Below, in pieces: positions 19,084-49,562 of a stretch of 64,000 bases of DNA; positions within the stretch are counted from its first letter, which is position 1, and each line of letters starts with the position of its first letter. The translations under genes and the position numbers were made by a program. The notes under the pieces are model-generated. The model was not told the origin of the DNA, did not search any database, and saw only the letters and a list, made by a program, of their open reading frames with translations. The stretch is from a virus. The stretch lies in the IMG/VR virus record IMGVR_UViG_3300033512_000218, positions 32,001 to 96,000 of that record; one strand, 5' to 3'.

Positions 19084-19210
19084 TAATATAATTTAAAATG
19101 AATATTAACCAACAACTGATATTAGGACAGAAACAATGGCTTATATTTGTTGTAAGCAAATAATCACTAAATTGTATGTTATGTACTTTTATCATAATAC
19201 ATTAATCAAA

Positions 19211-19447
19211 ATGGAAAATATAAAAATGAGTTTTAAAGATGCCCCTGTCGGTGCAAGATTTAAGTATCCAAATGATACAAGCGGAAATATTTGGGTTAAA
19301 ATTAATTCATATCCACAAAGTAGATTTGAAAGCGGATTAGGATTGATTTGTAAATGGGAAGGAAATATAAAAAGTTATCAATCTTTTTGCTCGTTTAGTG
19401 ATGAAAATAATGGAATTTCATTTGAAACTGAAATCGAGTTATTATAG
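19211..19447 (+). CDS. cassette hypothetical protein
   Basis: likely start MENIKMSF; ends just before site A. Confidence 0.6.
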   Translation: MENIKMSFKDAPVGARFKYPNDTSGNIWVKINSYPQSRFESGLGLICKWEGNIKSYQSFCSFSDENNGISFETEIELL

Positions 19448-19451
19448 TTGC

Positions 19452-19578
19452 TAACGGTTGCAAATAAACACAGTAAAAGATATGAAAGAACAAATTTTAG
19501 AAATAGCAGAAAAACTTAGATTAGAACTAATAACTGAATACGAAGCACAAAACCTTTTATTTGGTTTATTTAGTGTTA
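19452..19578. repeat. attC-like site A
   Basis: TAAC..CAAATAAACACAGTAAAAG / CTTTTATTTGGTTTATTTAG..GTTA. Confidence 0.65.
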
Positions 19579-19691
19579 TACAACGAAGTGAACAGTTGGT
19601 TGCTTTTGTAAAATGGTTAGAAGCTAATTCAGACCACTCAATTGATAGAGGTTGGATAGAAGAATATATTGAAGCAACCAATTGTGTATAA
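19482..19691 (+). CDS. cassette hypothetical protein starting inside site A
   Basis: MKEQILEI...LFSVIQRSEQLVAF; stop codon is the TAA of the next TAAC. Confidence 0.6.
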   Translation: MKEQILEIAEKLRLELITEYEAQNLLFGLFSVIQRSEQLVAFVKWLEANSDHSIDRGWIEEYIEATNCV

Positions 19692-19804
19692 CGGCTGAGT
19701 ATTGGCGTTGTTGCCATCATAAACGATTATTAATAACACTAAATTATAAAATTATGACAAAAGTTTCAGAAAACCACGAAGGCAATAACGCTAATACTTT
19801 GTTA
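19689..19804. repeat. attC-like site B
   Basis: arms AGTATTGGCGTTGTTGCC (19698) / GGCAATAACGCTAATACT (19781). Confidence 0.85.
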
Positions 19805-19978
19805 GCCACAGTTATTCCTCAATCAAAAGAAGAGTTGTTAGAATGTATTCAAAATTTGATGGGTGTATTTGACACACCAGTTTCAAGAAGAGCAATAAAG
19901 GGTGAATTTGCCGATGAAGTTCGTAAGATAGGTCGTCAAATTTTGGAAAGTAATGGTAAATCAATGTACGATATATAA
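19754..19978 (+). CDS. cassette hypothetical protein starting inside site B
   Basis: MTKVSENHEGNNANTLLATVIPQ; A-rich leader lies in the hairpin loop. Confidence 0.65.
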   Translation: MTKVSENHEGNNANTLLATVIPQSKEELLECIQNLMGVFDTPVSRRAIKGEFADEVRKIGRQILESNGKSMYDI

Positions 19979-19985
19979 TTGTGGC

Positions 19986-20071
19986 TAACGTATCGTGTAT
20001 GAGCAGTGGCACTTGTACACACTTTCAAATTAGCTACAACGATTATGTGCCATTGCTTATACACGGTGTTA
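19986..20071. repeat. attC-like site C
   Basis: arms CGTGTATGAGCAGTGGCAC / GTGCCATTGCTTATACACG. Confidence 0.85.
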
Positions 20072-20109
20072 GTGACAGTACTTTTTTTAATAATCTAATA
20101 ATCAATTAT

Positions 20110-20664
20110 ATGAAAGCTGAAAAACAAATAATTTACGATGACGAAAATGCAGCCAGATTCGTTGAAAATATCAAAGGTTGGGTTGATATTAATAATCAAT
20201 TTTATGGGAATAATTCAGATTCTGAACATATGGCACGTTGGTCAAGTTGCACACATAAAAAATGTAAATGCGGAAAGCTAATAACTAAAGGATGGACGAA
20301 ATGCGATGAATGTAGAACTAACTCCGAAATTGAAAGATATAACCAACTTACATTTAAAGAATATAATGGTGATATAGTTTATTCACATTATGCTGACCGA
20401 TACTTTATGGATTCTGATGAAATAGAAGATTATTGCTCTGAGGAAGAAATTGAGACTAAAGATTTGAGGCTTGTATTTTGCGAACCAAATAAATTTAGCC
20501 AAATATATAGTGACTATTGGGAAGATGTATTGCAAGAAGATTCAGAAGGCGAATTACCTACGAAGTTACAAGAGGCTTTAGATAATTTAAATAAAATCAT
20601 TTCTGAAATGCCTCCAGCGAGTTATTGCCCAAGTAAAACACGAACTGAATATCGTAGCGTGTAG
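20110..20664 (+). CDS. cassette phage protein with Cys cluster
   Basis: likely start MKAEKQIIYDD; CTHKKCKCG..CDEC. Confidence 0.7.
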   Translation: MKAEKQIIYDDENAARFVENIKGWVDINNQFYGNNSDSEHMARWSSCTHKKCKCGKLITKGWTKCDECRTNSEIERYNQLTFKEYNGDIVYSHYADRYFMDSDEIEDYCSEEEIETKDLRLVFCEPNKFSQIYSDYWEDVLQEDSEGELPTKLQEALDNLNKIISEMPPASYCPSKTRTEYRSV

Positions 20665-20673
20665 TATTGGCAC

Positions 20674-20762
20674 TAACGGTTGGGTGTATGAAACGTAACC
20701 TAACTACAAACTTTAGTATTAACCACTGAACTATAATAGGTTATGTTTTATACACCTTGTTA
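20674..20762. repeat. attC-like site D
   Basis: arms GGTGTATGAAACGTAACCTA / TAGGTTATGTTTTATACACC. Confidence 0.85.
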
Positions 20763-20862
20763 TATGCAGTGCGGACTTATAGTGGAAATGTTGATACGAG
20801 AGATGAACCTTTTTGTTTTATTTTTTGTGCGGTGGGAAAGTAATTAACTTAATAACTAAAAT

Positions 20863-21435
20863 ATGAAATACGAAATAATATACGCTGATCCAGCTTGGGA
20901 ATACAATACAAAGGAATGTTTGGCTAAAACATCAATACTTAATGGAGAATTGAATACCCATTATAGCACAATGACATTGAAAGACTTAAAAGCATTAGAC
21001 GTGCAAAGTATTTCAAATAAAAATTGTATGCTGTTTTTGTGGGTTGTAAGCCCGATGTTAAAAGAAGGTATTGAAGTGATGGAAGCGTGGGGCTTTAAAT
21101 ATGCCACAATAGCTTTTATATGGCACAAGCAAAGAACAAACCCTGGACATTATACAATGAGTGAATGTGAAATTTGCTTGGTAGGGAAGCGTGGCACAAT
21201 ACCAACTCCAAGAGGAGCAAGGAATGTAAGGCAATTTTTATCTGAAATGCGAGGCAAACATTCTGCTAAACCTAATGAAATAAGAACGAGAATTGATACA
21301 ATGTTTCCAACTCAAAATAAAGTAGAATTATTTGCAAGGCAGAATGTTTTAGGATGGGATGCTTGGGGTAACGAATGCGAAAACTCTATAACTATTGGAG
21401 GGGAGGAAAAAAAAATTAAAACAAATTGCGTATAA
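20863..21435 (+). CDS. MT-A70 family N6-adenine methyltransferase (cassette)
   Basis: IYADPAW, LFLWV, WGFKY, HSAKP, ELFAR..GWDAWGNE. Confidence 0.9.
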   Translation: MKYEIIYADPAWEYNTKECLAKTSILNGELNTHYSTMTLKDLKALDVQSISNKNCMLFLWVVSPMLKEGIEVMEAWGFKYATIAFIWHKQRTNPGHYTMSECEICLVGKRGTIPTPRGARNVRQFLSEMRGKHSAKPNEIRTRIDTMFPTQNKVELFARQNVLGWDAWGNECENSITIGGEEKKIKTNCV

Positions 21436-21497
21436 CGAATGGTGCTATGAGCAGGTTTGTGTTGCGCCTGCGGCAAACTTGCTTATAGCACGTGTTA
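21433..21497. repeat. attC-like site E
   Basis: arms GTGCTATGAGCAGGTTTG / CAAACTTGCTTATAGCAC. Confidence 0.85.
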
Positions 21498-21568
21498 CTG
21501 GCTGGCTCGGTTAATTAACCACTAAACTCAAATCGAAGCATTAAACAAAAGAATTTAAAAAAAGAGGG

Positions 21569-22330
21569 ATGGAAAAAAATAAAATATATAACGAAAATTG
21601 CCTTGAAACAATGGCTAAAATGCCTGATAAGTTTGTGGACTTAACGGTTACTTCACCGCCTTATAATATGCGAACACGTATAAGAAACGGACAATATACC
21701 ACAAGAGAGAAAAGCGAACATTTTAGCAAAAAGTATAAGTATTTTGACGATGCTTTACCAATAAATGATTTTTACGAATTTCATAGCAGCGTATTGACTG
21801 AACTATTGAGAGTATCAAAAATTGTTTGCTACAACTTTCAAATAGTGACAGGAAGCAAAGAAGCGTTTTTTAAAATCATTGGCGACTTTAACAAGGATAT
21901 TAAGGATATTATCATTTGGGATAAAGGAAGCGGACAGCCTGCAATGCACGGAATGGTTTTAAATAGCTGCTATGAAATGGTATTGATATTAGAAGATGAT
22001 AAAAGAGCAGGGAGAGCAATACAAAATGCTAAATTCAAAAGAGGTGAAATGAATAACATTTTGAGAATCGGCAGAGGCAAAAAAGTATCTGATGTTCACG
22101 GTGCAATTTTTCCAGAACAACTACCATTTGATTTGATAAACGCTTTTTCAGAAAAAGAAGCATTGATTTACGACCCTTTTATGGGAAGTGGAACTACTGG
22201 ATTAGTAGCAAGTAAATTAGGTAGAAACTATATTGGAAGTGAAATAACAGAAGAATATTGTCAAATAGCTGAAAATCGTATTAAAGAGTGCGGTGGGCTT
22301 TTTTTGAACTCTTTTGAACCGAAATGTTAA
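21569..22330 (+). CDS. N4-C/N6-A DNA methyltransferase, beta class (cassette)
   Basis: TSPPY, HGAIFP, YDPFMGSGTT. Confidence 0.9.
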   Translation: MEKNKIYNENCLETMAKMPDKFVDLTVTSPPYNMRTRIRNGQYTTREKSEHFSKKYKYFDDALPINDFYEFHSSVLTELLRVSKIVCYNFQIVTGSKEAFFKIIGDFNKDIKDIIIWDKGSGQPAMHGMVLNSCYEMVLILEDDKRAGRAIQNAKFKRGEMNNILRIGRGKKVSDVHGAIFPEQLPFDLINAFSEKEALIYDPFMGSGTTGLVASKLGRNYIGSEITEEYCQIAENRIKECGGLFLNSFEPKC

Positions 22331-22358
22331 ATCGCAGCACAAATGTAGAGCTTGCCAG

Positions 22359-22447
22359 TAACGTTGGTGCTATGAGCAGGTTTGCCTTGCAGAAATGTTC
22401 AAATTTAGCACTAATGTTATTGGCAAACTTGCTTATAGCACGTGTTA
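22359..22447. repeat. attC-like site F
   Basis: arms identical to site E, different loop. Confidence 0.85.
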
Positions 22448-22483
22448 TGTGCCGTTTTTATTCACGAATTTAAAATTAGTAAG

Positions 22484-22996
22484 ATGAAAAAATATGATGT
22501 AATTTATGCCGACCCTGCTTGGCGATATGACTTTAGCAAAAGTAATAGCAGGGAAATTGAAAACCAATACCCAACAATGACCATAGATGAAATATGTGGA
22601 TTAAAAGTACCTGCAAAAGATAACGCTGTGCTTTATATGTGGGCAACTGCACCAAAGCTATTGGAAGCAATAAAAGTATTAAATGCGTGGGGCTTTGAAT
22701 ATAAAACACAAGCAGTTTGGGATAAGGAAATTATCGGAATGGGTTATTGGTTCAGAGGACAACACGAAATATTAATAGTTGCTACAAAGGGTAAATTTTC
22801 ACCACCCGAACAACCATTAAGAATAAGTAGTGTGATTAAGGAAAGGAGAACCAAGCATAGCAAGAAACCGATTTATGTAAGAGATATGATTGAAAAATGG
22901 TTTCCCGATTCTGAACGATTAGAAATGTTTGCCCGAACAAGCGGTGAAAATTGGGATGTTTGGGGAAATGAAGTTGAGAGTAGTGTCGCTCTTTAA
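22484..22996 (+). CDS. MT-A70 family methyltransferase (cassette)
   Basis: IYADPAW, WGFEYKT, HSKKP, EMFAR; likely ATG at 22484. Confidence 0.9.
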   Translation: MKKYDVIYADPAWRYDFSKSNSREIENQYPTMTIDEICGLKVPAKDNAVLYMWATAPKLLEAIKVLNAWGFEYKTQAVWDKEIIGMGYWFRGQHEILIVATKGKFSPPEQPLRISSVIKERRTKHSKKPIYVRDMIEKWFPDSERLEMFARTSGENWDVWGNEVESSVAL

Positions 22997-23005
22997 AATG
23001 GCACA

Positions 23006-23093
23006 TAACGGTTGCGTGTATATTTCAGGTTTGCTTGTACGAACTTTGAATTATGCACAAATGCTGATGCAAACTTGAATATACACGTTGTTA
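23006..23093. repeat. attC-like site G
   Basis: arms CGTGTATATTTCAGGTTTGC / GCAAACTTGAATATACACG. Confidence 0.85.
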
Positions 23094-23167
23094 GTAACAG
23101 TAGCATACGACAATGTTAATTTGAAACGCTACACTTTTTATTTTAAATTTTTAAGGAGGGATTTTTT

Positions 23168-24148
23168 ATGAATATTTTGAGTTTATTTGATGGTATAAGT
23201 TGTGGGCAAATAGCGTTGGAACGTGCTAATATTAAAGTTGATAAATATTACGCAAGTGAAATTGATGCCAATGCTATTAAAGTTACGAAACACAACTACC
23301 CAAATACAATACATATTGGAAGTGTGAATGATATTGATTTTAGTAAATACCAAGATATTGATATTTTAATTGGTGGTAGCCCCTGCCAAGACTTATCACG
23401 TTGTAATTTAGAAAATAAGGGATTAGAAGGAGAACGATCTAAATTATTTTTTAAATACATAGAATCGTTAAAAATTACTAAGCCTAAATATTATGTATTT
23501 GAAAATGTTGGAAGTATGACCAATGAGAATATGGAAACCATAAGTGAATATTTCGGACATAAACCAATTTGTATAAACTCAAATTTAGTTTCTCCACAAA
23601 GCAGAGAAAGATATTATTGGACAAATATACCAAACGTAATACCACCAATAGATAAAAACATTTTGGTTAAGAATATAATTGAAAAAACCGTACCCGAAAA
23701 GTATTACTTAAAAATGGATTATGCTTATGTACCAAAGGAAACAAAACATAATTCAAAAAGCGGATTACAATTTGTTTGTGGTATTATTAGCAAAAAGAAA
23801 TGGCTTGATGATGGGAAAGGAAATTCACGTAATTTTTCACAAGGAAATAGAGTTTATTCGATAAATGGAAAATCTTGTACTATAAATGCAAATGCTGGAG
23901 GATTAGGTGGTAAAAGTGGATTATATTATTTAGAAGATGGAAAGGAATTTAGCAAAAGCAATATAAGAAGATTAACACCATTAGAAACAGAACGATTACA
24001 AACAATACCTGACAACTATACCGATATAATAAACGAAACAAATAGGTACAAATGTATTGGCAATGGTTGGACGGTAGATGTAATTGCACATATTCTTTCT
24101 TTTATAAATGGTTTTGAAAAAACCACAGATCGTGGGCAAAAAATTTAA
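23168..24148 (+). CDS. C5-cytosine DNA methyltransferase (cassette)
   Basis: LSLFDGI, GGSPCQDLS, FENV, QSRERYY, RRLTPLETERLQ, IGNGW. Confidence 0.93.
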   Translation: MNILSLFDGISCGQIALERANIKVDKYYASEIDANAIKVTKHNYPNTIHIGSVNDIDFSKYQDIDILIGGSPCQDLSRCNLENKGLEGERSKLFFKYIESLKITKPKYYVFENVGSMTNENMETISEYFGHKPICINSNLVSPQSRERYYWTNIPNVIPPIDKNILVKNIIEKTVPEKYYLKMDYAYVPKETKHNSKSGLQFVCGIISKKKWLDDGKGNSRNFSQGNRVYSINGKSCTINANAGGLGGKSGLYYLEDGKEFSKSNIRRLTPLETERLQTIPDNYTDIINETNRYKCIGNGWTVDVIAHILSFINGFEKTTDRGQKI

Positions 24149-24199
24149 AATAAAAAATTATTATGCACGAACCTTGCTACGAAGAAAGGCTATTGTTAC

Positions 24200-24302
24200 T
24201 AACTATTATATATAAACAAGTGTATTTAATTTATTGATTATGAATACAAAAGACAAAACAAATCTTGAAATTTTCGAAGATATTTCTTGAGTTGAAAATT
24301 AT
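24200..24302. other. attI-like terminal site plus putative integrase 5' remnant
   Basis: TAACTATTATATATAAA..TTATTGATTATG then MNTKDKTNLEIFEDIS*VENY; ~100 bp shared with 42846-42950. Confidence 0.6.
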
Positions 24303-24306
24303 AAAT

Positions 24307-24363
24307 TTTAACATTTATTAACACAAATTAATTTTGATTTAGTTAATAAATGTTTTATCTTTG
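24307..24363 (+). promoter_or_regulatory. 57-bp early-type promoter
   Basis: motif copy. Confidence 0.8.
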
Positions 24364-24388
24364 TGATATAATTTAAAAAATTAAACAA

Positions 24389-24820
24389 ATGAAACATTTT
24401 ATTACATCATTAAGAGCAACCTCAAAAGAAGAAACATTAAATCGTTTTAAAGAAACAAATGATTATAATGAAAATAAAGTATATTCTGCTAATCTCAATT
24501 GGTATACACAGGATTGGGATATATACGAATATGATTTAAAAGAAGGTGATTATATTGCATTTGAATATGAATATGAAATAGGTGACCCTGAAATAATAGT
24601 TGATAATATTTCATTTGTATATGAAGATAGAGTAATCGTACACTTTTTATATGGTTATAAATCTGAAACTTGTACTATTTTAAAAAAAGATATTTTAGCA
24701 ATAGGAAATAAACTAAATGGAACAACAAAATTATTAGGTTGGACTGGCTTATTTGATATTGTAAATGAAACAGATTTTTTAATTAAAAATATAGAATATG
24801 AAACAAAATCTAATAGTTAA
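24389..24820 (+). CDS. hypothetical protein
   Basis: ORF after promoter. Confidence 0.65.
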   Translation: MKHFITSLRATSKEETLNRFKETNDYNENKVYSANLNWYTQDWDIYEYDLKEGDYIAFEYEYEIGDPEIIVDNISFVYEDRVIVHFLYGYKSETCTILKKDILAIGNKLNGTTKLLGWTGLFDIVNETDFLIKNIEYETKSNS

Positions 24821-25010
24821 AAAAGGACAAATAATTAAAACCGAGAGAAATGAAATTTTCAAAGTTAAATTGGAAAATGATAATATTATTACCTGTACAA
24901 TATCAGGTAAAATGAGATTAAATAAAATTCATTTAATTGAAGGTGATTTCGTAACGGTTGAATTATCTCCTTATGATATGACACGAGGTAGAATTAGTTG
25001 GAAAGGATAA
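24798..25010 (+). CDS. infA: translation initiation factor IF-1
   Basis: FKVKLEND..ISGKMRLNKIHLIEGDFVTVELSPYDMTRGRI. Confidence 0.93.
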   Translation: MKQNLIVKKGQIIKTERNEIFKVKLENDNIITCTISGKMRLNKIHLIEGDFVTVELSPYDMTRGRISWKG

Positions 25011-25399: not shown

Positions 25400-25882
25400 T
25401 AGCAGTTTGCAATATGAAACGGTTGCATTATAAAACGTTTCAATTTTAGTAATAGCTTGACAGCAACAGTTTTATATTGCTTGTTAGGTATAATAATTTT
25501 TATTATGGGAATGTACACACAATTTATTATCGAATGCAAGTTAAAAGAAGAAACTCCTTACAAAATTATCGAATGTTTAGAAGATATGATAAACGACATT
25601 GATAATGATTTATTTACTTATAATCGAAATCCTTTAAACAATTATTGTGAAAGCAATAAATATTTTAAATCATTTAAAGATTTAGTGTTAAAAGCACATG
25701 GGGATATAAAAAACTATCAGACTGATATTGATAGGTTTACTGATTTTATAAAACCTTATGTGGAAATAGGGTTTTTAGAAAATAATTCTTTTGCTAAATC
25801 ATTATACGAAGGATATGATGAGTGGACGTATTATTGTACCTAACTATTATATATAAAAATCTCAACCTAAGTTATTGACTAT
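25400..25882. mobile_element. integron-like array 2 (attC-like hairpin, one gene, attI-like end)
   Basis: arms GCAATATGAAACGGTTGC / GCAACAGTTTTATATTGC; ends GTTAGGTATAATAA / TTATTGTACCTAAC; then TATTATATATAAA..TTATTGACTAT. Confidence 0.75.
25505..25843 (+). CDS. cassette hypothetical protein
   Basis: likely start MGMYTQF; stop codon is the TAA of TAAC. Confidence 0.7.
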   Translation: MGMYTQFIIECKLKEETPYKIIECLEDMINDIDNDLFTYNRNPLNNYCESNKYFKSFKDLVLKAHGDIKNYQTDIDRFTDFIKPYVEIGFLENNSFAKSLYEGYDEWTYYCT

Positions 25883-25897
25883 ATTTAAAATTATATT

Positions 25898-25954
25898 TTT
25901 AACATTTATTAACATAATTAAATTTGTATTTTTGATTTATTTAATCTATCTTTG
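25898..25954 (+). promoter_or_regulatory. 57-bp early-type promoter
   Basis: motif copy. Confidence 0.8.
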
Positions 25955-25978
25955 TAATATAATTTAAAAAATAATAAA

Positions 25979-29371: not shown

Positions 29372-29545
29372 ATGAAAGATAAATATATAATTATTGACCT
29401 TAGAAATATGAATGTCATGAAAAATAAAGAAGGTAAAATAATTTTTTATAATACAGAAGATGAAGCATATGAAGTATGAGGAATGTATGAATTTGAAAAT
29501 GTCTGGGTTATGAAGTTAATTTATAATCATATTGAAAATTATTAA
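29372..29545 (+). pseudogene. small gene with in-frame TGA at 29477-29479
   Basis: MKDKYIIIDL...EAYEV*GMYEFENVWVMKLIYNHIENY. Confidence 0.5.
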
Positions 29546-29594
29546 ACAATACAAATTTTATAGAATGGAAATTAATTTTACATACAAAAATAAT

Positions 29595-30086
29595 ATGAAT
29601 ACAAATAAAAAATATGAATTAACAAATGAAACAATTAGTCTTAATGGTTATACGTTATATAGAATTAAAGCATTAAAATCATTTTCAGATGTAAAGGAAG
29701 GAGATTTAGGAGGTTTTATACAATCAGAAAAAAATCTATATCAAAAAGATGAATGTTGGGTTTATGATAATGCAATGGTGTTTAATGAAGCAAGAATATT
29801 TGAGAATGCTACAATATCCGAAAACACTAAGGTTTTTAATAATGCATGGGTTTTTAACAATGCTAAAGTTTATGGAAATTCCCAGATTTATGGTAATGCT
29901 AAAATTTATAGAAATGCTAAAGTTTTCGGTGATACTAAGATTTATGATAATGCTAAAGTTTTTGGGAATACCAGAGTTTATGGAAATGCTAAAGTTTATG
30001 GTGATGCTAAAATATTCGTAAATAGTTTAATTTGTGGAACTGCAAATGTGGATTATGATGTTAGTAGAGGTGAAATAAACGAATAA
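29595..30086 (+). CDS. hexapeptide-repeat (left-handed beta-helix) phage protein, paralog 1
   Basis: KKYELT..LYRIKALKSFSDVKEGDLGG then (V/I)xxNAx repeats; likely start MNTNKK. Confidence 0.8.
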   Translation: MNTNKKYELTNETISLNGYTLYRIKALKSFSDVKEGDLGGFIQSEKNLYQKDECWVYDNAMVFNEARIFENATISENTKVFNNAWVFNNAKVYGNSQIYGNAKIYRNAKVFGDTKIYDNAKVFGNTRVYGNAKVYGDAKIFVNSLICGTANVDYDVSRGEINE

Positions 30087-30285: not shown

Positions 30286-30888
30286 ATGGATAAAAACGAA
30301 TTGAACAATTTAATTAAAAAAATTGTTAGTGAAAATACTATCAATGAAGATATTAATAAAAAATATGAATTAACTAAAGACAGTATTAATATTAATGGAA
30401 ATAAATTATATCGAATCAAAGCATTAAGGTCATTTTCACATGTTAAAAAAGGAGATTTAGGAGGATATATTCAATCAGAAAATAATTTATCACATGAAAA
30501 AAAATGTTGGGTGTATAATGATGCTAAAGTATATGGAAATGCTGAAGTTTCTGATAATGCAACAATTTCTATGGATGCTTTAATTCTTGACAATGCTAAA
30601 GTATATGGAAATGCTGAAGTTTCAGGTAATGCTAAAGTTTACGGAGATTCTAAAGTGTTTGGTAATGCGTATGTATATCAAAAATCTGATATTTATGGAA
30701 ATGCTAAGGTTTATGGTCATGCTCAAATATTTGGGTATGCGAAAGTTTATGATAATGCGAAAGTTTATGATACAGCTGAAGTATTAGCACATGCAGAAAT
30801 ATTTGGGGATGCCCAAGTTTTTGGAGATGTATTAGTTTATAATGCTAAAGTTAATTATAAAATTAATAAAGGTGAAATAAACGAATAA
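30286..30888 (+). CDS. hexapeptide-repeat protein, paralog 2, with N-terminal leader
   Basis: VYGNAK repeats; leader IKKIVSENTINED; GTATTTAT at 30248. Confidence 0.85.
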   Translation: MDKNELNNLIKKIVSENTINEDINKKYELTKDSININGNKLYRIKALRSFSHVKKGDLGGYIQSENNLSHEKKCWVYNDAKVYGNAEVSDNATISMDALILDNAKVYGNAEVSGNAKVYGDSKVFGNAYVYQKSDIYGNAKVYGHAQIFGYAKVYDNAKVYDTAEVLAHAEIFGDAQVFGDVLVYNAKVNYKINKGEINE

Positions 30889-37947: not shown

Positions 37948-38553
37948 TTATTTTGATATTTTTTGATTTTTAACATCATAATCTACCTTAGCATTTCCAA
38001 AAACTATTGCGTTTTCACTAATAGTAGCATCACCATATATTTTTGCTTGTTGAAATATTTGGGCATTACGAAATATATATGCTTTCCCAAAAATTTGTAC
38101 ATCATCATAAACTTGTGCGTTACCAAAAACCTTAGCATTTTTATAAACTTTAACATTATCAAATACTCTTGCATTATCATATACCTGAGCATTATCAAAT
38201 ACTTTCGCTTTTCCATAAACTTTAGCGTTATCAAATACTTTTGCATTATCAGATATTATAGCTTCATGATAAACTTGGGCATCATCATAAACTTTAGCAT
38301 TTCCATATACTTTAGCATTATTATCAATCCAACAATCATCTTCGTGTGATAAATTATTTTCAGATTGAACATATCCTCCTAAATCTCCCTCTTTTATATT
38401 TGAAAATGATTTTAATGCTTTTATACGATATAATGTATTTCCATCAATATTAATTGTTTCATTGGTTAATTCATATTTTCTATCATTATCTTCATTGATA
38501 GTATTTTCGGAAATAATTTTTTTAATTAATTTGTCTAAATCTTTTATGTTCAT
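37948..38553 (-). CDS. hexapeptide-repeat protein, paralog 3, with N-terminal leader
   Basis: leader IKKIISENTINED; VYGNAK repeats; flanks homologous to those of paralog 2. Confidence 0.85.
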   Translation of the reverse strand: MNIKDLDKLIKKIISENTINEDNDRKYELTNETINIDGNTLYRIKALKSFSNIKEGDLGGYVQSENNLSHEDDCWIDNNAKVYGNAKVYDDAQVYHEAIISDNAKVFDNAKVYGKAKVFDNAQVYDNARVFDNVKVYKNAKVFGNAQVYDDVQIFGKAYIFRNAQIFQQAKIYGDATISENAIVFGNAKVDYDVKNQKISK

Positions 38554-40267: not shown

Positions 40268-41041
40268 ATGATAATAGATTTAAGATTTGGTGATACAATA
40301 GAACAAATGAAATTAATACCTAATAAAAGTATTGATTTTATTTGTTGTGATTTACCGTATGGTACAACTAAAAATCATTGGGATATTGTTATTCCATTTG
40401 ATAAATTATGGGAACAATATGAACGAATTATTAAAAATAATGGTGCTATTGCTTTATTTGGTCAAGGATTGTTTTTTATAGATTTAATAAACTCAAATAG
40501 AAAATTATTCAGATATGATTTAGTTTGGGATAAACAATTAACAAGTGGATTTTTAAATGCAAATCGTATGCCATTAAGAGTACATGAAAATATTGCTATT
40601 TTTTATAAGCAACCACCTATATATAATTCACAATATACAGAAGGTAAGCCACTACATTCAAAAGGAAAATCATATCTAAATAAAGAACATAAAAATGAAA
40701 ATTATGGTAAATTTAAAATGATTGAAGATATTAATGTTGGTAATACACAAAAACATTCTAAAAGTATTATATCTTTTCAAAAACCACATCCAAGTAAATC
40801 CTTACATCCCACACAAAAACCAGTTGAATTGATTGGATGGTTAATAATGTCATATTCAAATGAAAATGATACTGTATTGGATAATACATTTGGAAGTTGT
40901 ACAACAGGAATTGCATGTATAAATACAAATAGAAATTTTATTGGAATAGAAAATAATATTCATTATTTTAATATTTCATTAAAAAGAATAAATGAAAAAC
41001 AAAAAGAAAAAGAATTTATATTATTAAATTCAATGATTTAA
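40268..41041 (+). CDS. N6-A/N4-C DNA methyltransferase, beta class
   Basis: CDLPYG, HPTQKP, LDNTFGSCTTG. Confidence 0.9.
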   Translation: MIIDLRFGDTIEQMKLIPNKSIDFICCDLPYGTTKNHWDIVIPFDKLWEQYERIIKNNGAIALFGQGLFFIDLINSNRKLFRYDLVWDKQLTSGFLNANRMPLRVHENIAIFYKQPPIYNSQYTEGKPLHSKGKSYLNKEHKNENYGKFKMIEDINVGNTQKHSKSIISFQKPHPSKSLHPTQKPVELIGWLIMSYSNENDTVLDNTFGSCTTGIACINTNRNFIGIENNIHYFNISLKRINEKQKEKEFILLNSMI

Positions 41042-41871: not shown

Positions 41872-42162
41872 ATGAAAACTTTGAGTACAAAAGAAACTGC
41901 CCAATTGGGTATAGGTGGTGTTATGCACCGTGAATTTCAAGAAAAGTTATTTAATGATATAAAAGCTATGCAATACAGAATACAAGGGCTTGCTGCTTAT
42001 GTACAGAATGACTTTGAAAGAATGTTGGAAGATGGTACAACAACAAAAGAAACTATTAATACTGAAATTACAGAAATGGATGAACAGTATAATAAGTTTA
42101 TTAACGACCTTAATATATTGAGAAAGCAAACCCGTGATTTAATGACTTTTCATGTTGCATAA
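41872..42162 (+). CDS. cassette coiled-coil protein
   Basis: reads through the GTTA core at 41920; stop codon is the TAA of TAAC. Confidence 0.7.
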   Translation: MKTLSTKETAQLGIGGVMHREFQEKLFNDIKAMQYRIQGLAAYVQNDFERMLEDGTTTKETINTEITEMDEQYNKFINDLNILRKQTRDLMTFHVA

Positions 42163-42950
42163 CGAAAAACGGTATGTGCCGTGATGTTTTTCGTATCTAA
42201 ACGGCTCAAAAGTATCAATAACCACAAATGTAAATAAGTAAGTAGACTGTATCAAAATAGCACTAAAAACAGCATGGACACTATACCGTATGTTATGCGT
42301 ATTAATCATATTATCAATAATTTAATTTTATAAAAATGGAAAATATCACAAATTTTGAAACATTAAACAGTTTTTTAGAAAAATTAGAAACTGAAAAAGA
42401 GGAATTAAATAGAAAAATAGAAATTTTGGAAGAAGAAAAAGATCATCAAAAATGGCAATGGATGAAACACATTGCAGTGCCAAAAGATGATTTTCTTAAA
42501 CAATTGCCTTGTCCACGAATAGAAATGAAAATATTTGGTGATAGATATGAATGTGGATGGATTACAGGAATTGTTTTTCCTGATTATGCAGACGAGGAAA
42601 AAAACAGATTTATTCCTTTTTCAATGACTACTACAAGTGGAAAAGATTTAATCGAAAATAAAAATCCGCGTTTGCCCTGGCGTGATGAGTTTCATATTTA
42701 TTCTTATTCACGAATATTTAATTTACGAATGTTTTTAACACGAGAAAATGATAATTTAATTACAGAATTATTTGTAAAACCTGAATTTATAAATCCTTTA
42801 TCAGATTTTGAAAGTAAAAATGTTATCGTTTAAATTTATTACGCATAACTATTATATATAAACACACATTTAATTTATTGATTATGAATACAAAAGGTAA
42901 ATCAACTCTTGAAATTTTTGAAAATAATTTAAGAGTTAAAAAAATTATAA
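41896..42950. mobile_element. integron-like array 3 (2 cassettes, attI-like end, integrase remnant)
   Basis: GTTATGCACCGTGAA / TTCATGTTGCATAAC; hairpin 42160-42295; GTTATGCGTATTAAT / TTTATTACGCATAAC; terminal site at 42846. Confidence 0.75.
42336..42833 (+). CDS. cassette hypothetical protein
   Basis: ORF between hairpin and terminal site. Confidence 0.7.
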   Translation: MENITNFETLNSFLEKLETEKEELNRKIEILEEEKDHQKWQWMKHIAVPKDDFLKQLPCPRIEMKIFGDRYECGWITGIVFPDYADEEKNRFIPFSMTTTSGKDLIENKNPRLPWRDEFHIYSYSRIFNLRMFLTRENDNLITELFVKPEFINPLSDFESKNVIV

Positions 42951-42972: not shown

Positions 42973-44265
42973 ATGAATAACGAAATAAAAGAATTTATAG
43001 TAAAAATGAACTCAAGTAATTCAAATAATGAAAAACTTAGCATTTTAACATCCTATGAAAATAATACATTAATAAAAGATATATTATTCTATACATACAA
43101 TCCATTTATTAATTATCATCTAACAAGTGAAAATTTAATAAAGAATAATAATATTGTGGTTAATACCGATTTAGATTTATTTTCTATATTAAATATTCTA
43201 TCCAAACGACAAAAAACAGGACATGATGCAATTGGTATTGTAAATGGACTTATTAAAAATAATATTGATTATAAAGATATTATTTATAAAATAATTGATA
43301 AAAATTTAGAAATAAGAATAGATATAAAAACAATCAATAAAGTATTTTCTAATCTAATCCCAACGTATGATGTTGCATTAGCAAATAAATTGGATGATAA
43401 GTTAAAAAATAGTATTAATTGGAAAACCGAACATTGGTTAGCAAGTAGAAAATTAGATGGTATTAGATGTGAAATGATAGTAGATGAAAATTATAATGTT
43501 ACTTCATTTAGTAGAGAAGGAAAAGAAATAGAAACATTAACCACATTAAAAAAATATATTTACGATATTTGTATTTCAAATAAAATCAGTAATGTTGTAT
43601 TTGATGGAGAAATATGTATTATAAATGAAAAAGGAGAAGATGATTTTCAAGGTATTATGAAACAAATAAGAAAAAAGAATCATGATATTATAAATGCAAA
43701 ATATTATATATTCGATTTTCTTAATAAAATAGATTTTGAAAATCAAACAAGTAAAGAAACATTTAGTGAACGTTTATTAAAATTAAATAATCTTAATTAT
43801 AATAATGATAAAATAATTGTACTACCTCAATATGATTTTGATATGTATATTGATTATGAAAAATGGAATAAATTAGTAAGTGATAATAATTGGGAAGGAT
43901 TTATGCTTCGTAAAAATACAATATACAAAGGTAAACGAAGTAATGATATTCTTAAAGTTAAAATTTTTTTTGATAATGAATATATTGTTAAAAAAATAGA
44001 AACAGGTAATTTTAGAGTAATAAATAAAGAAACTAAATTAGAAGAAGTTATTGAAACTCTAACAAATGTTATTATAGAACATAAAGGATATGAAGTATCT
44101 GTTGGTAGTGGATTTTCATTGGAACAACGTAAATTATACTATAATAATCCTACTTTACTATTAAATAAAAATATTACTGTTTCATACTTTGAAGAAACAT
44201 TAGACCAAAATAATAAAATATCATTGAGATTTCCAACTTTCAAAGGTATTAGAGAATTAATTTAA
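42973..44265 (+). CDS. ATP-dependent DNA ligase
   Basis: KLDGIR, FDGEI, YIFD, EGFMLR, LKVK, GSGF, SLRFPTF. Confidence 0.93.
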   Translation: MNNEIKEFIVKMNSSNSNNEKLSILTSYENNTLIKDILFYTYNPFINYHLTSENLIKNNNIVVNTDLDLFSILNILSKRQKTGHDAIGIVNGLIKNNIDYKDIIYKIIDKNLEIRIDIKTINKVFSNLIPTYDVALANKLDDKLKNSINWKTEHWLASRKLDGIRCEMIVDENYNVTSFSREGKEIETLTTLKKYIYDICISNKISNVVFDGEICIINEKGEDDFQGIMKQIRKKNHDIINAKYYIFDFLNKIDFENQTSKETFSERLLKLNNLNYNNDKIIVLPQYDFDMYIDYEKWNKLVSDNNWEGFMLRKNTIYKGKRSNDILKVKIFFDNEYIVKKIETGNFRVINKETKLEEVIETLTNVIIEHKGYEVSVGSGFSLEQRKLYYNNPTLLLNKNITVSYFEETLDQNNKISLRFPTFKGIRELI

Positions 44266-49033: not shown

Positions 49034-49562
49034 TATTATTTATGCTGACCCCCCTTGGAGGTATAAAGACCAAAAGAATAACGACCCAAATATGGGTGGA
49101 ATAACATATCCTACAATGGATTTAGAGGAAATAAAATCATTACCTATTAATGATATATCTGATAAAGATTGTGCGTTATTTCTTTGGGCTACAATGCCAT
49201 TATTACCCGAAGCATTAGAAGTTATCAAATCATGGGGATTTAAATATACAACTTGTGCTTTTACTTGGGTAAAACAAAATCCAAAAGGAGAAGGTATTTA
49301 TTCTGGTTTAGGACATTGGACAAATGGTAATGCTGAATTATGTTTATTTGCTAAAAAAGGAACACCTAAAAGAAATGAAAAAAATGTTAAACAAATAGTG
49401 TTATCACCACGTTCAAGACATTCTGAAAAACCAAATGAAGTTAGAAATAGAATAGTACGTTTAATAGGTGATTTACCTCGTATTGAATTATTTGCAAGAC
49501 AAAAAATAGAAGGATGGGATATTTGGGGGAATGAATTAACAAATGATATAGAAATAAATTAA
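49020..49562 (+). CDS. MT-A70 family methyltransferase
   Basis: IYADPPW, WGFKYTT, HSEKP, ELFAR. Confidence 0.9.
   Translation: MKKYSIIYADPPWRYKDQKNNDPNMGGITYPTMDLEEIKSLPINDISDKDCALFLWATMPLLPEALEVIKSWGFKYTTCAFTWVKQNPKGEGIYSGLGHWTNGNAELCLFAKKGTPKRNEKNVKQIVLSPRSRHSEKPNEVRNRIVRLIGDLPRIELFARQKIEGWDIWGNELTNDIEIN

Follow-up and report, generated by a model that had tools for sequence, protein, structure and literature searches.

Cassette arrays of a phage that end in probable attI-like sites with relics of a Xer-like recombinase gene

Integron-type gene capture is thought to depend on the integrase IntI and to belong to bacteria. In the phage genome described here, three arrays of gene cassettes end on the right in the same short sequence, which raises the question of what this sequence is and which enzyme, if any, it belonged to. 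The window, i.e., the whole stretch of 64,000 nt that was analyzed, comprises bases 32001-96000 of the 139,610-bp IMG/VR virus record IMGVR_UViG_3300033512_000218 and has a G+C content of ~20%. The record is estimated to be 60% complete, leaving ~40% of the genome unseen. Positions refer to the window unless stated otherwise, and the features are collected in Table 1.

Several direct searches gave zero matches: an Rfam E-value scan of 18-44 kb of the window, a megablast of window 18-27 kb against cultured phages, and a blastn of one array hairpin against cultured phages. The exact two-block pattern of the terminal site was absent from IMG/VR. As the IMG/VR search for relatives of the window's DNA ligase returned one weak match only, there was no close relative of the phage to compare. 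Scanning for sigma-70 promoters and terminators was uninformative in the AT-rich DNA of the window. With direct searches for the site unproductive, its relatives were reached via the hairpin family and then via the recombinase.

Table 1. Positions of the arrays, terminal sites, relics and adjoining features in the window (a slash marks the junction)
Feature	Position	Strand	Remarks
Cassette array 1	19178..24203	+	six clear TAAC-hairpin-GTTA sites
Array 1 sites	19689-19804, 19986-20071, 20674-20762, 21433-21497, 22359-22447, 23006-23093	+	TAAC-hairpin-GTTA
3′ end of last array 1 cassette (C5 methyltransferase)	24188..24203	+	GGCTATTGTTACTAAC
attI-like site, copy 1	24200..24241	+	core TAAC/TATTATATATAAA, 10-nt spacer, block 2 TAATTTATTGATTAT
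Recombinase N-terminus relic, copy 1	24240..24302	+	16 codons, in-frame TGA, VENY; homology ends ..AATTAT
D2 early promoter repeat, Bacteroidota-type, replacing the recombinase body after copy 1	24292..24380	+	TTTG and TAnnTTTG boxes
Array 2, single cassette	25413..25844	+	..AAAC, hairpin 25418-25482, GTTAGGTATAATAAT, 128-aa ORF, ..TAAC
attI-like site, copy 2	25829..25882	+	cassette end TATTATTGTACCTAAC, core, spacer, block 2 (13/15), no ATG
Array 3, two cassettes	41872..42849	+	ORF 41872-42162, attC-like site 42160-42295 (GCATAAC...GTTATGC), ORF 42336-42833
attI-like site, copy 3	42834..42885	+	cassette end ATTTATTACGCATAAC, core, 8-nt spacer, block 2; end/start complementarity 13/16
Recombinase N-terminus relic, copy 3	42884..42948	+	MNTKGKSTLEIFENNLRVKK..; homology ends ..AAATTAT
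Small AAC...GTT hairpin inside copy 3 relic	42904..42937	+	arms AACTCTTGAAA / TTTAAGAGTT; conserved in the recombinase subfamily
ATP-dependent DNA ligase gene, following copy 3 in the recombinase's place	42973..44265	+	PF01068 1.8e-15, PF14743

The arrays and their terminal sites

The hairpins of the arrays answer the description of attC sites: they are imperfect inverted repeats with outer ..AAC and GTT.. boxes, and a cassette's own ends complement each other at 13-14 of 16 positions. Their extrahelical bases are not consistent; the array 3 site has two extra bases on the 3′ arm, and the common hairpin family has three on the 5′ side and none inside its 20-bp stem. Array 1, with its six sites and no recombinase in 139.6 kb, also falls under the definition of a CALIN (at least two clustered attC sites without an integron-integrase nearby). 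Its last four cassettes encode, in order, MT-A70, N6_N4, MT-A70 and C5 DNA methyltransferases, and the gene at 23168-24148 matches PF00145. All cassette genes of the window lie on the + strand and read towards the terminal site, with phage early promoters at the distal array ends (19012, 41662).

The hairpin of array 1 sites 5 and 6 is found almost unaltered, in differing surroundings, in 41 contigs of IMG/VR (L005-L045). This ~90-nt hairpin, TAACGTATGGTGCTATGAGCAGG...CTTGCTTATAGCACGTGTTA, is nearly identical in contigs from many samples; the sequence to its left varies, and that to its right belongs to one of at least seven recurring classes, which resembles homogeneous attC sites of the VCR type.

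On the right the arrays run into the 17-mer TAACTATTATATATAAA, of which exact copies start at 24200, 25841 and 42846, all on the + strand. Even when one mismatch was allowed, no others were found in the whole 139,610-bp record, and ~0.003 exact matches per genome are expected from base composition. A second block, TAA(T/G)TTATTGA(T/C)TAT, starts at 24227, 25868 and 42871, separated from the 17-mer by 10, 10 and 8 nt (copies 1, 2 and 3, respectively), and occurs nowhere else in the genome. The two-block ending had been proposed by a first-pass annotation, and these matches are in full agreement with it. The same annotation held that the right ends are not hairpins. This is true of the site as a whole, as the stretch from TAAC to the end of the relic folds no better than shuffled sequence (z = -0.25, +0.07); on the same grounds we rejected the idea that the whole site, from TAAC to the GTTA in codon 18-19, is a disguised attC hairpin.

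Block 1 is identical at 17/17 positions in all three copies. Block 2 is the same in copies 1 and 3, and copy 2 matches it at 13/15; the spacer is mostly different. Thirty-three positions of blocks 1 and 2 are identical between copies 1 and 3, whereas the spacer and the relic have diverged by ~20-50%. The contrast hints at constraint on the blocks, although gene conversion could also account for it.

Each site lies directly to the right of the inverse-complementary end of the last cassette of its array. That cassette ends in TAAC, and its last 16 nt are inversely complementary to the 16 nt after the preceding hairpin at 14/16, 14/16 and 13/16 positions. Thus, the reverse complement of GGCTATTGTTACTAAC matches the start of its own cassette at 23090 (GTTAGTAACAGTAGC..) at 14/16, and the cassette end at copy 2 complements its start at 25483 at 14/16. 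The TAA of the copy 2 core also serves as the stop codon of ORF 25457-25843.

Relics of a recombinase gene behind copies 1 and 3

Translation from the ATG after copy 1 (24240) gives MNTKDKTNLEIFEDIS, a stop, VENYKF and another stop, and that from the ATG after copy 3 (42884) gives MNTKGKSTLEIFENNLRVKKIIIKLKNT followed by a stop; copy 2 has no ATG and lacks the ORF. The two ORFs differ at 12 positions and by a 2-nt indel over 63-65 nt. We searched the 139.6-kb genome with an nhmmer profile built from 66 foreign integrase-proximal sites and 120 nt of each adjoining gene. Two matches only were obtained, one at copy 1 (window 24190-24282, genome 56190-56282, E = 1.3e-11) and one at copy 3 (window 42837-42937, genome 74837-74937, E = 2.4e-10), both ending at node 95-106 of the 178 in the model; copy 2 alone is too short for significance. 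The 17-mer of the window is essentially the consensus of the sites of this recombinase family. When the 20-aa peptide of copy 3 was compared with 915 kb of foreign loci in six frames by tblastn, the best matches fell at residue 1 of recombinase ORFs (L122, 1.1e-6; L127, 1.7e-5; L105, 3.5e-5). An intact metagenomic relative of 269 aa (L231) starts with MNTKGKATLEKFSNILRVKNYS, almost exactly the consensus that had been drawn from the two relics in the first-pass annotation. At the level of sequence, the searches demonstrate the homology of both site and relic.

Aligned with intact 5′ regions, the homology extends through ..AGAGTTAAAAATTAT (LRVKNY), up to codon ~22, and is followed by unrelated sequence, i.e., the D2 promoter after copy 1 and the leader of the DNA ligase after copy 3. 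The peptides and the abrupt end of their similarity are thus as the first-pass annotation had described them. It had also likened them to the N-terminus of XerD/IntI-type enzymes; the alignment from residue 1 of tyrosine recombinases supports the link to a recombinase start, and the enzyme proved Xer-like rather than IntI (see below). None of the catalytic residues R-K-H-R-H-Y is present in the relics, which retain only codons 1-16 or 1-22 of the N-terminal SAM-like domain.

The three copies have a common 3′ breakpoint, ...AAAATTAT/A. Copy 2 runs directly into ..AAAATTAT and a D2 promoter (25883-25971), which it shares with copy 1. Because of this single breakpoint, one truncation followed by duplication is more parsimonious than the three independent integrase losses assumed before, and nothing shows three separate captures of the platform.

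A tyrosine recombinase was sought across the 139.6-kb contig and none was found, nor any trace beyond the relics; the intact copy that might have been expected elsewhere in the record is absent from it. The search of the six-frame genome with a protein HMM of 61 integrases gave nothing (best E = 0.96) and did not detect the relics either. A hidden pseudogene body of the recombinase was ruled out by this result. As the contig is only 60% complete, it cannot be stated that the integrase was lost from the phage as a whole.

The relic of copy 3 contains a small AAC...GTT hairpin at codons 8-18, which has decayed in copy 1. In an alignment of 20 sequences 87% of the cells are paired, compared with 80% in shuffles (0/500 reach the observed value), and 18 compensatory cells were counted where 6.2 are expected (0/500 shuffles); in slid controls pairing was at most 56%. 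Most truncation points of cut recombinase genes lie within ~15 nt after this inner hairpin. The stretch could either be part of the functional site or a preferred break point, and we cannot tell which.

Repeats of the D2 promoter type were seen in ~10 copies of ~89 nt on the + strand (19012, 24292, 25883, 35103, 41022, 41662, 46095, 54947, 57094 and 60746), with reverse copies near 1088-2409. They contain a conserved TTTAACATTTATTAACA, often together with GTTAATAAATGTT as a 13-bp inverted repeat, and then TTTG..TATCTTTG. They are likely early promoters with an operator or stem-loop.

The recombinase and its site in related phages

In L020, from a 288-kb contig that is one of the 41 with the hairpin of sites 5 and 6, a 268-aa ORF starting with MNEKGKSTLKICEQKLNYLNYS comes directly after a close variant of the terminal site. 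The encoded enzyme is a tyrosine recombinase with an N-terminal SAM-like domain (PF00589, 5.9e-34; PF13495). The best NCBIfam models are those of XerA_Arch, and the integron integrase model remains below its cut-off (TIGR02249, 152 bits vs. a cut-off of 265). Among solved structures the best match is P. abyssi XerA (4a8e), which aligns in one stretch (E = 3e-32). The match to VchIntIA (PDB 2a3v) is split in two (residues 19-180 with 16-181 and 211-267 with 260-316); between them the L020 enzyme has 30 residues where IntIA has 78, so that ~48 residues of the IntI-specific segment are missing. The feature that defines the IntI clade, an additional segment with the I2 helix between patches II and III, is therefore lacking, and the enzyme is Xer-like, not IntI.

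Three such enzymes were aligned, and the alignment retrieved 178 relatives from IMG/VR. The best 80 of these (52-78% identity) are largely on big contigs of up to 362 kb, many carriers measuring 100-360 kb. Where enough upstream DNA was available, the core TAAC-TAT(T/C/A)ATATAT was located 36-56 nt before the start codon in 70/75 IMG/VR loci; the remaining five have core variants or miscalled starts. R134, K159, H218, R221, H244 and Y253 are kept in all 61 distinct full-length enzymes, which are 263-269 aa long except for two that were called longer (296 and 300 aa). The homologous sites in other phage contigs thus run on into a full tyrosine recombinase with R-K-H-R-H-Y, as should be the case if the first-pass inference was right.

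The arrangement around these genes is the same as that around the relics. TAAC-hairpin-GTTA sites number 101 upstream and 4 downstream of the recombinase gene (34-fold denser upstream), and of the upstream ORFs 424 are co-directional with this gene, i.e., read towards the site, vs. 30 in the opposite direction. The layout suspected from the window, that of a canonical integron on the other strand, with the integrase beyond the site and pointing away from it and the cassette genes pointing towards attI, is thereby borne out in the relatives, whose architecture we regard as established from these loci. In a strand-blind test, the fold criteria were met on the recombinase-sense strand only for 77/81 distinct hairpins (p = 9e-14), and the comparison of the two strand folds gave 277 vs. 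55 G.T pairs. An RNA-level cause of this asymmetry is not excluded, because the cassette genes lie on the recombinase-sense strand too.

Scanning metagenomes for the site gave 20 contigs, 18 of which had enough downstream DNA. The recombinase was intact in 7 of these, a full-length pseudogene in 3 (a stop codon interrupts one, and the other two are identical and share a frameshift) and cut after 5-31 codons in 8. Contig Ga0307376_10000499 (47.9 kb; L225 and L228) has an intact recombinase next to its site and, in a different place, another site followed by a stump of 30 codons; L225 is the same as the IMG/VR locus L127. At another IMG/VR locus (L033) the gene is cut after ~93 codons.

Bacterial genomes contain hardly any close relatives of the phage recombinase. 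More distant ones, with 40-50% identity, are common in Bacteroidota and Ignavibacteriota, and only a few of them carry a core variant. In six Bacteroidota MAG contigs (L134, L135, L166, L177, L183 and L207), a variant core, ..TAAC or CAAC followed by nnTATATGTAC.., lies before a recombinase that shares 42-47% identity with the phage family, and these may be chromosomal or prophage versions of the system.

The cultured Polaribacter phage Freya and Cellulophaga phage Ingeline encode recombinases of this family, with 36-39% identity to that of L020, and in both a ..ATTGTTGCTAAC/ACCC.. junction is located ~50-60 nt before the recombinase gene. The ten strains Freya_1 to Freya_10 (MT732463-72; L046/L050, L211-L220) are otherwise identical and differ only by a modular block immediately upstream of the "integrase." Comparing Freya_1 with Freya_10, the flanks are 100% and 99.9% identical, and the 4.94 kb by which Freya_10 is longer sit precisely at the boundary of ..CAAC/ and ACCCCTATAAC.., 52 nt ahead of the recombinase ATG. 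In seven strains the module sets are none, A, AB, ABX, ACD, ABC and ABCD, all of them inserted at this boundary. Every module junction ends in (T/C)AAC/, and the two modules that were checked, A and B, start with a hairpin and then GTTA. The polymorphism at the site is directly visible in these sequences and is what precise site-specific gain and loss of cassettes beside a recombinase would produce. These are published assemblies whose record origins fall within the variable block or beside it, so that an artefact of assembly cannot be wholly ruled out; the exactness of the AAC junctions and the fact that the module sets are not nested speak against one. The definition of attI, a primary site beside the integrase gene at which cassettes are inserted, is met on comparative and not on biochemical evidence, and recombination at the site is likewise inferred from comparative data without experiment.

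Interpretation of the sites and comparison with known systems

It is highly probable, in our judgment, that the three window sites are recombinase-proximal, attI-like sites of a phage integron-like cassette system. In the intact layout of the relatives, a cassette array is followed on one strand by ..nnnTAAC/TAT(T)ATATAT.., ~40-55 nt and the ATG of a Xer-like recombinase. A cassette consists of a folded AAC...GTT hairpin, GTTAnnn, the gene and nnnTAA, and would enter or leave beside the recombinase gene by strand exchange right at or after AAC; both catalysis by the recombinase and the exact position of cleavage are inferred. Seen on the strand of the recombinase gene, this is the "bottom strand" topology of a classical integron, with the cassette genes inverted towards the site. 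The chemistry may differ from that of integrons, since the IntI-specific segment is missing and the extrahelical bases are inconsistent.

In the phage of the window, the recombinase gene would have been deleted after codon ~22, with an early promoter (copies 1 and 2) or the DNA ligase gene (copy 3) taking its place. Duplication of the truncated unit probably came next, after which copy 2 would have lost the codons that were left. The arrays would thus now be attC-like clusters without an integrase. Their sites may still be usable by a recombinase acting in trans, whether encoded in the ~40% of the genome that is missing or brought in by a co-infecting phage. That the three sites are active today is an inference, to which we would give nearly an even chance.

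Could the TAAC-TATTATATAT site instead be the attP of an ordinary lysogeny integrase, with the window copies as module remnants and the hairpins as unrelated elements, e.g., terminators? An attachment site beside int is typical of temperate phages, the enzyme is Xer-like without the IntI insertion, and the Freya and Ingeline enzymes are annotated as integrases and were taken as a sign of temperate phages (PMC8776804). It is nevertheless a very improbable explanation. It does not account for the cassette end that is always found left of the core and complements its own start, or for the 34-fold enrichment of hairpins on exactly this side. Internal losses of Freya modules (ACD, ABC) are not expected from aberrant prophage excision. 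Three copies in one genome, the size of many carrier contigs and the near absence of close relatives from bacterial genomes also argue against it. We find it hardly credible that the repeat is merely a promoter, or the duplicated leader or 5′ end of a resident gene, without any link to recombination. Copy 3 does lie 89 nt before the ligase ATG, and the core is AT-rich with a 10-bp palindrome, as a promoter might be, but the same segment precedes two unrelated downstream contexts, the profile and peptide searches connect it specifically with recombinase genes, at residue 1, and three copies in 139.6 kb are too few for a promoter class. By frame count, a -1 slip in the run of seven A residues at 42935-42941 of the copy 3 relic would fuse the short ORF, without a stop, to the ligase ORF at 42973, which we judged a coincidence. 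The short ORF as a frameshifted N-terminal extension of the ligase was rejected: it matches recombinase starts and recurs before unrelated genes.

Another explanation accepts the same origin and takes the three sites for dead fossils on which no recombinase acts, their identity reflecting recent duplication only. That no recombinase was found in 139.6 kb is consistent with this, as are the in-frame stop and decayed inner hairpin of copy 1 and the missing relic of copy 2, and the identity of the cores could indeed stem from recent duplication or gene conversion and not from functional selection. The identity of the blocks beside a diverged spacer and relic points to constraint, however, another phage contig carries an intact copy together with a relic site, and ~40% of the genome is unseen. 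We regard fossil sites as a real possibility that nonetheless stops short of an even balance. On the side of living sites, we tentatively propose that Bacteroidota phages run their own integron-like capture with a short Xer-like enzyme without the IntI insertion, that one enzyme serves several landing pads and that the window sites are live in trans; for this proposal as a whole our confidence is a little under one half. If it is true, a jumbo phage swaps anti-restriction methyltransferase cassettes at live secondary platforms, and the system is an independent invention or a simpler relative of the bacterial integron that explains the origin of phage CALINs.

Compared with classical integrons (class 1; Vibrio cholerae IntIA/VCR, 2a3v), the proposed system has in common a recombinase gene beside a non-hairpin primary site for cassette addition, cassettes split by imperfect hairpins with ..AAC and GTT.. 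bounds, and cassettes whose own two ends complement each other, not the ends that physically adjoin them. In both, the single strand that folds well is that of the recombinase gene, and the implied exchange is AA/C. Unlike IntI, the phage-family enzyme has only 263-269 aa, lacks ~48 residues of the IntI-specific segment and scores below the integron-integrase cut-off. The cassette genes have the opposite orientation, being read from distal phage promoters in the direction of the site, so that the Pc-type logic of expression, with promoterless cassettes reading away from attI, is not followed. The hosts are phages, and in the window the recombinase is gone. Xer-type recombinases (archaeal XerA 4a8e; XerC/D) share the simple layout of a SAM-like N-terminal and a catalytic domain. 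They resolve chromosome dimers at a single dif site, whereas the phage family is found at the ends of cassette arrays, beside a different, conserved AT-rich core.

Phage CALINs with orphan DNA methyltransferases have been reported, including that of Polaribacter phage P12002L, one attC of which was recombined by IntI1; neither a cognate phage recombinase nor an attI was named (Qi et al. 2023, PMC9892861). The window arrays resemble them as attC-like clusters without an integrase that carry orphan DNA methyltransferases, and the P12002L cassettes have the same ATTGTTGCTAAC-hairpin-GTTAGGCAC ends. They differ in that a conserved site with a recombinase relic closes the window arrays and connects such clusters with a dedicated phage enzyme. 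When P12002L was checked as a carrier, it contained neither the site nor the recombinase. Its CALIN (L221 29100-32290, minus strand) has cassette ends of the ATTGnnnnTAAC / GTTAnnnn type, and the last cassette ends in ..ATTGTGCCTAAC without a following hairpin, attI-like core or recombinase.

The integrases of Freya and Ingeline have been taken as markers of a temperate lifestyle, without mention of the module variation (Bartlau et al. 2021, PMC8776804). Both are members of the recombinase family described here and share the ..ATTGTTGCTAAC/ACCC.. junction, and the strain comparison points instead to turnover of cassettes there. In cultured flavobacterial phages, "lysogeny integrases" can thus be re-read as cassette recombinases, and Freya and Ingeline, with cultured Polaribacter and Cellulophaga hosts, offer a tractable test system.

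A literature search found no description of this pair of recombinase and site in phages. The arrays of the window appear to be a degenerate, integrase-less member of an apparently undescribed phage integron-like system that is widespread in Bacteroidota phages. Orphan phage cassette arrays would thereby be tied to a large phage-borne family of short Xer-like recombinases, and phage CALINs would gain a cognate enzyme and a primary site. The system also illustrates a way in which anti-defence genes, orphan methyltransferases among them, may be shuffled by phages. That stumps of 20-30 codons recur hints that the functional site reaches into the 5′ end of the recombinase gene.

Some further features were seen near the arrays. 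Orphan methyltransferases lie outside them at 49209-49536 and 40268-41041, namely a third MT-A70 paralogue, whose nucleotide identity to those in the arrays is 62-79%, and a second enzyme of the N6_N4 type. A 70-aa ORF located between the first two site copies (24798-25010, +) matches translation initiation factor IF-1 (PF01176, 1.8e-20). Long runs of 18-nt tandem repeats are present at 29763-30077 and 30496-30846 (+) and at 37974-38328 (-), inside ORFs 29532-30086, 30286-30888 and 37948-38553, which implies proteins with repeats of the hexapeptide type. The first two of these ORFs are paralogous, with 75-81% identity over 135-220 nt.
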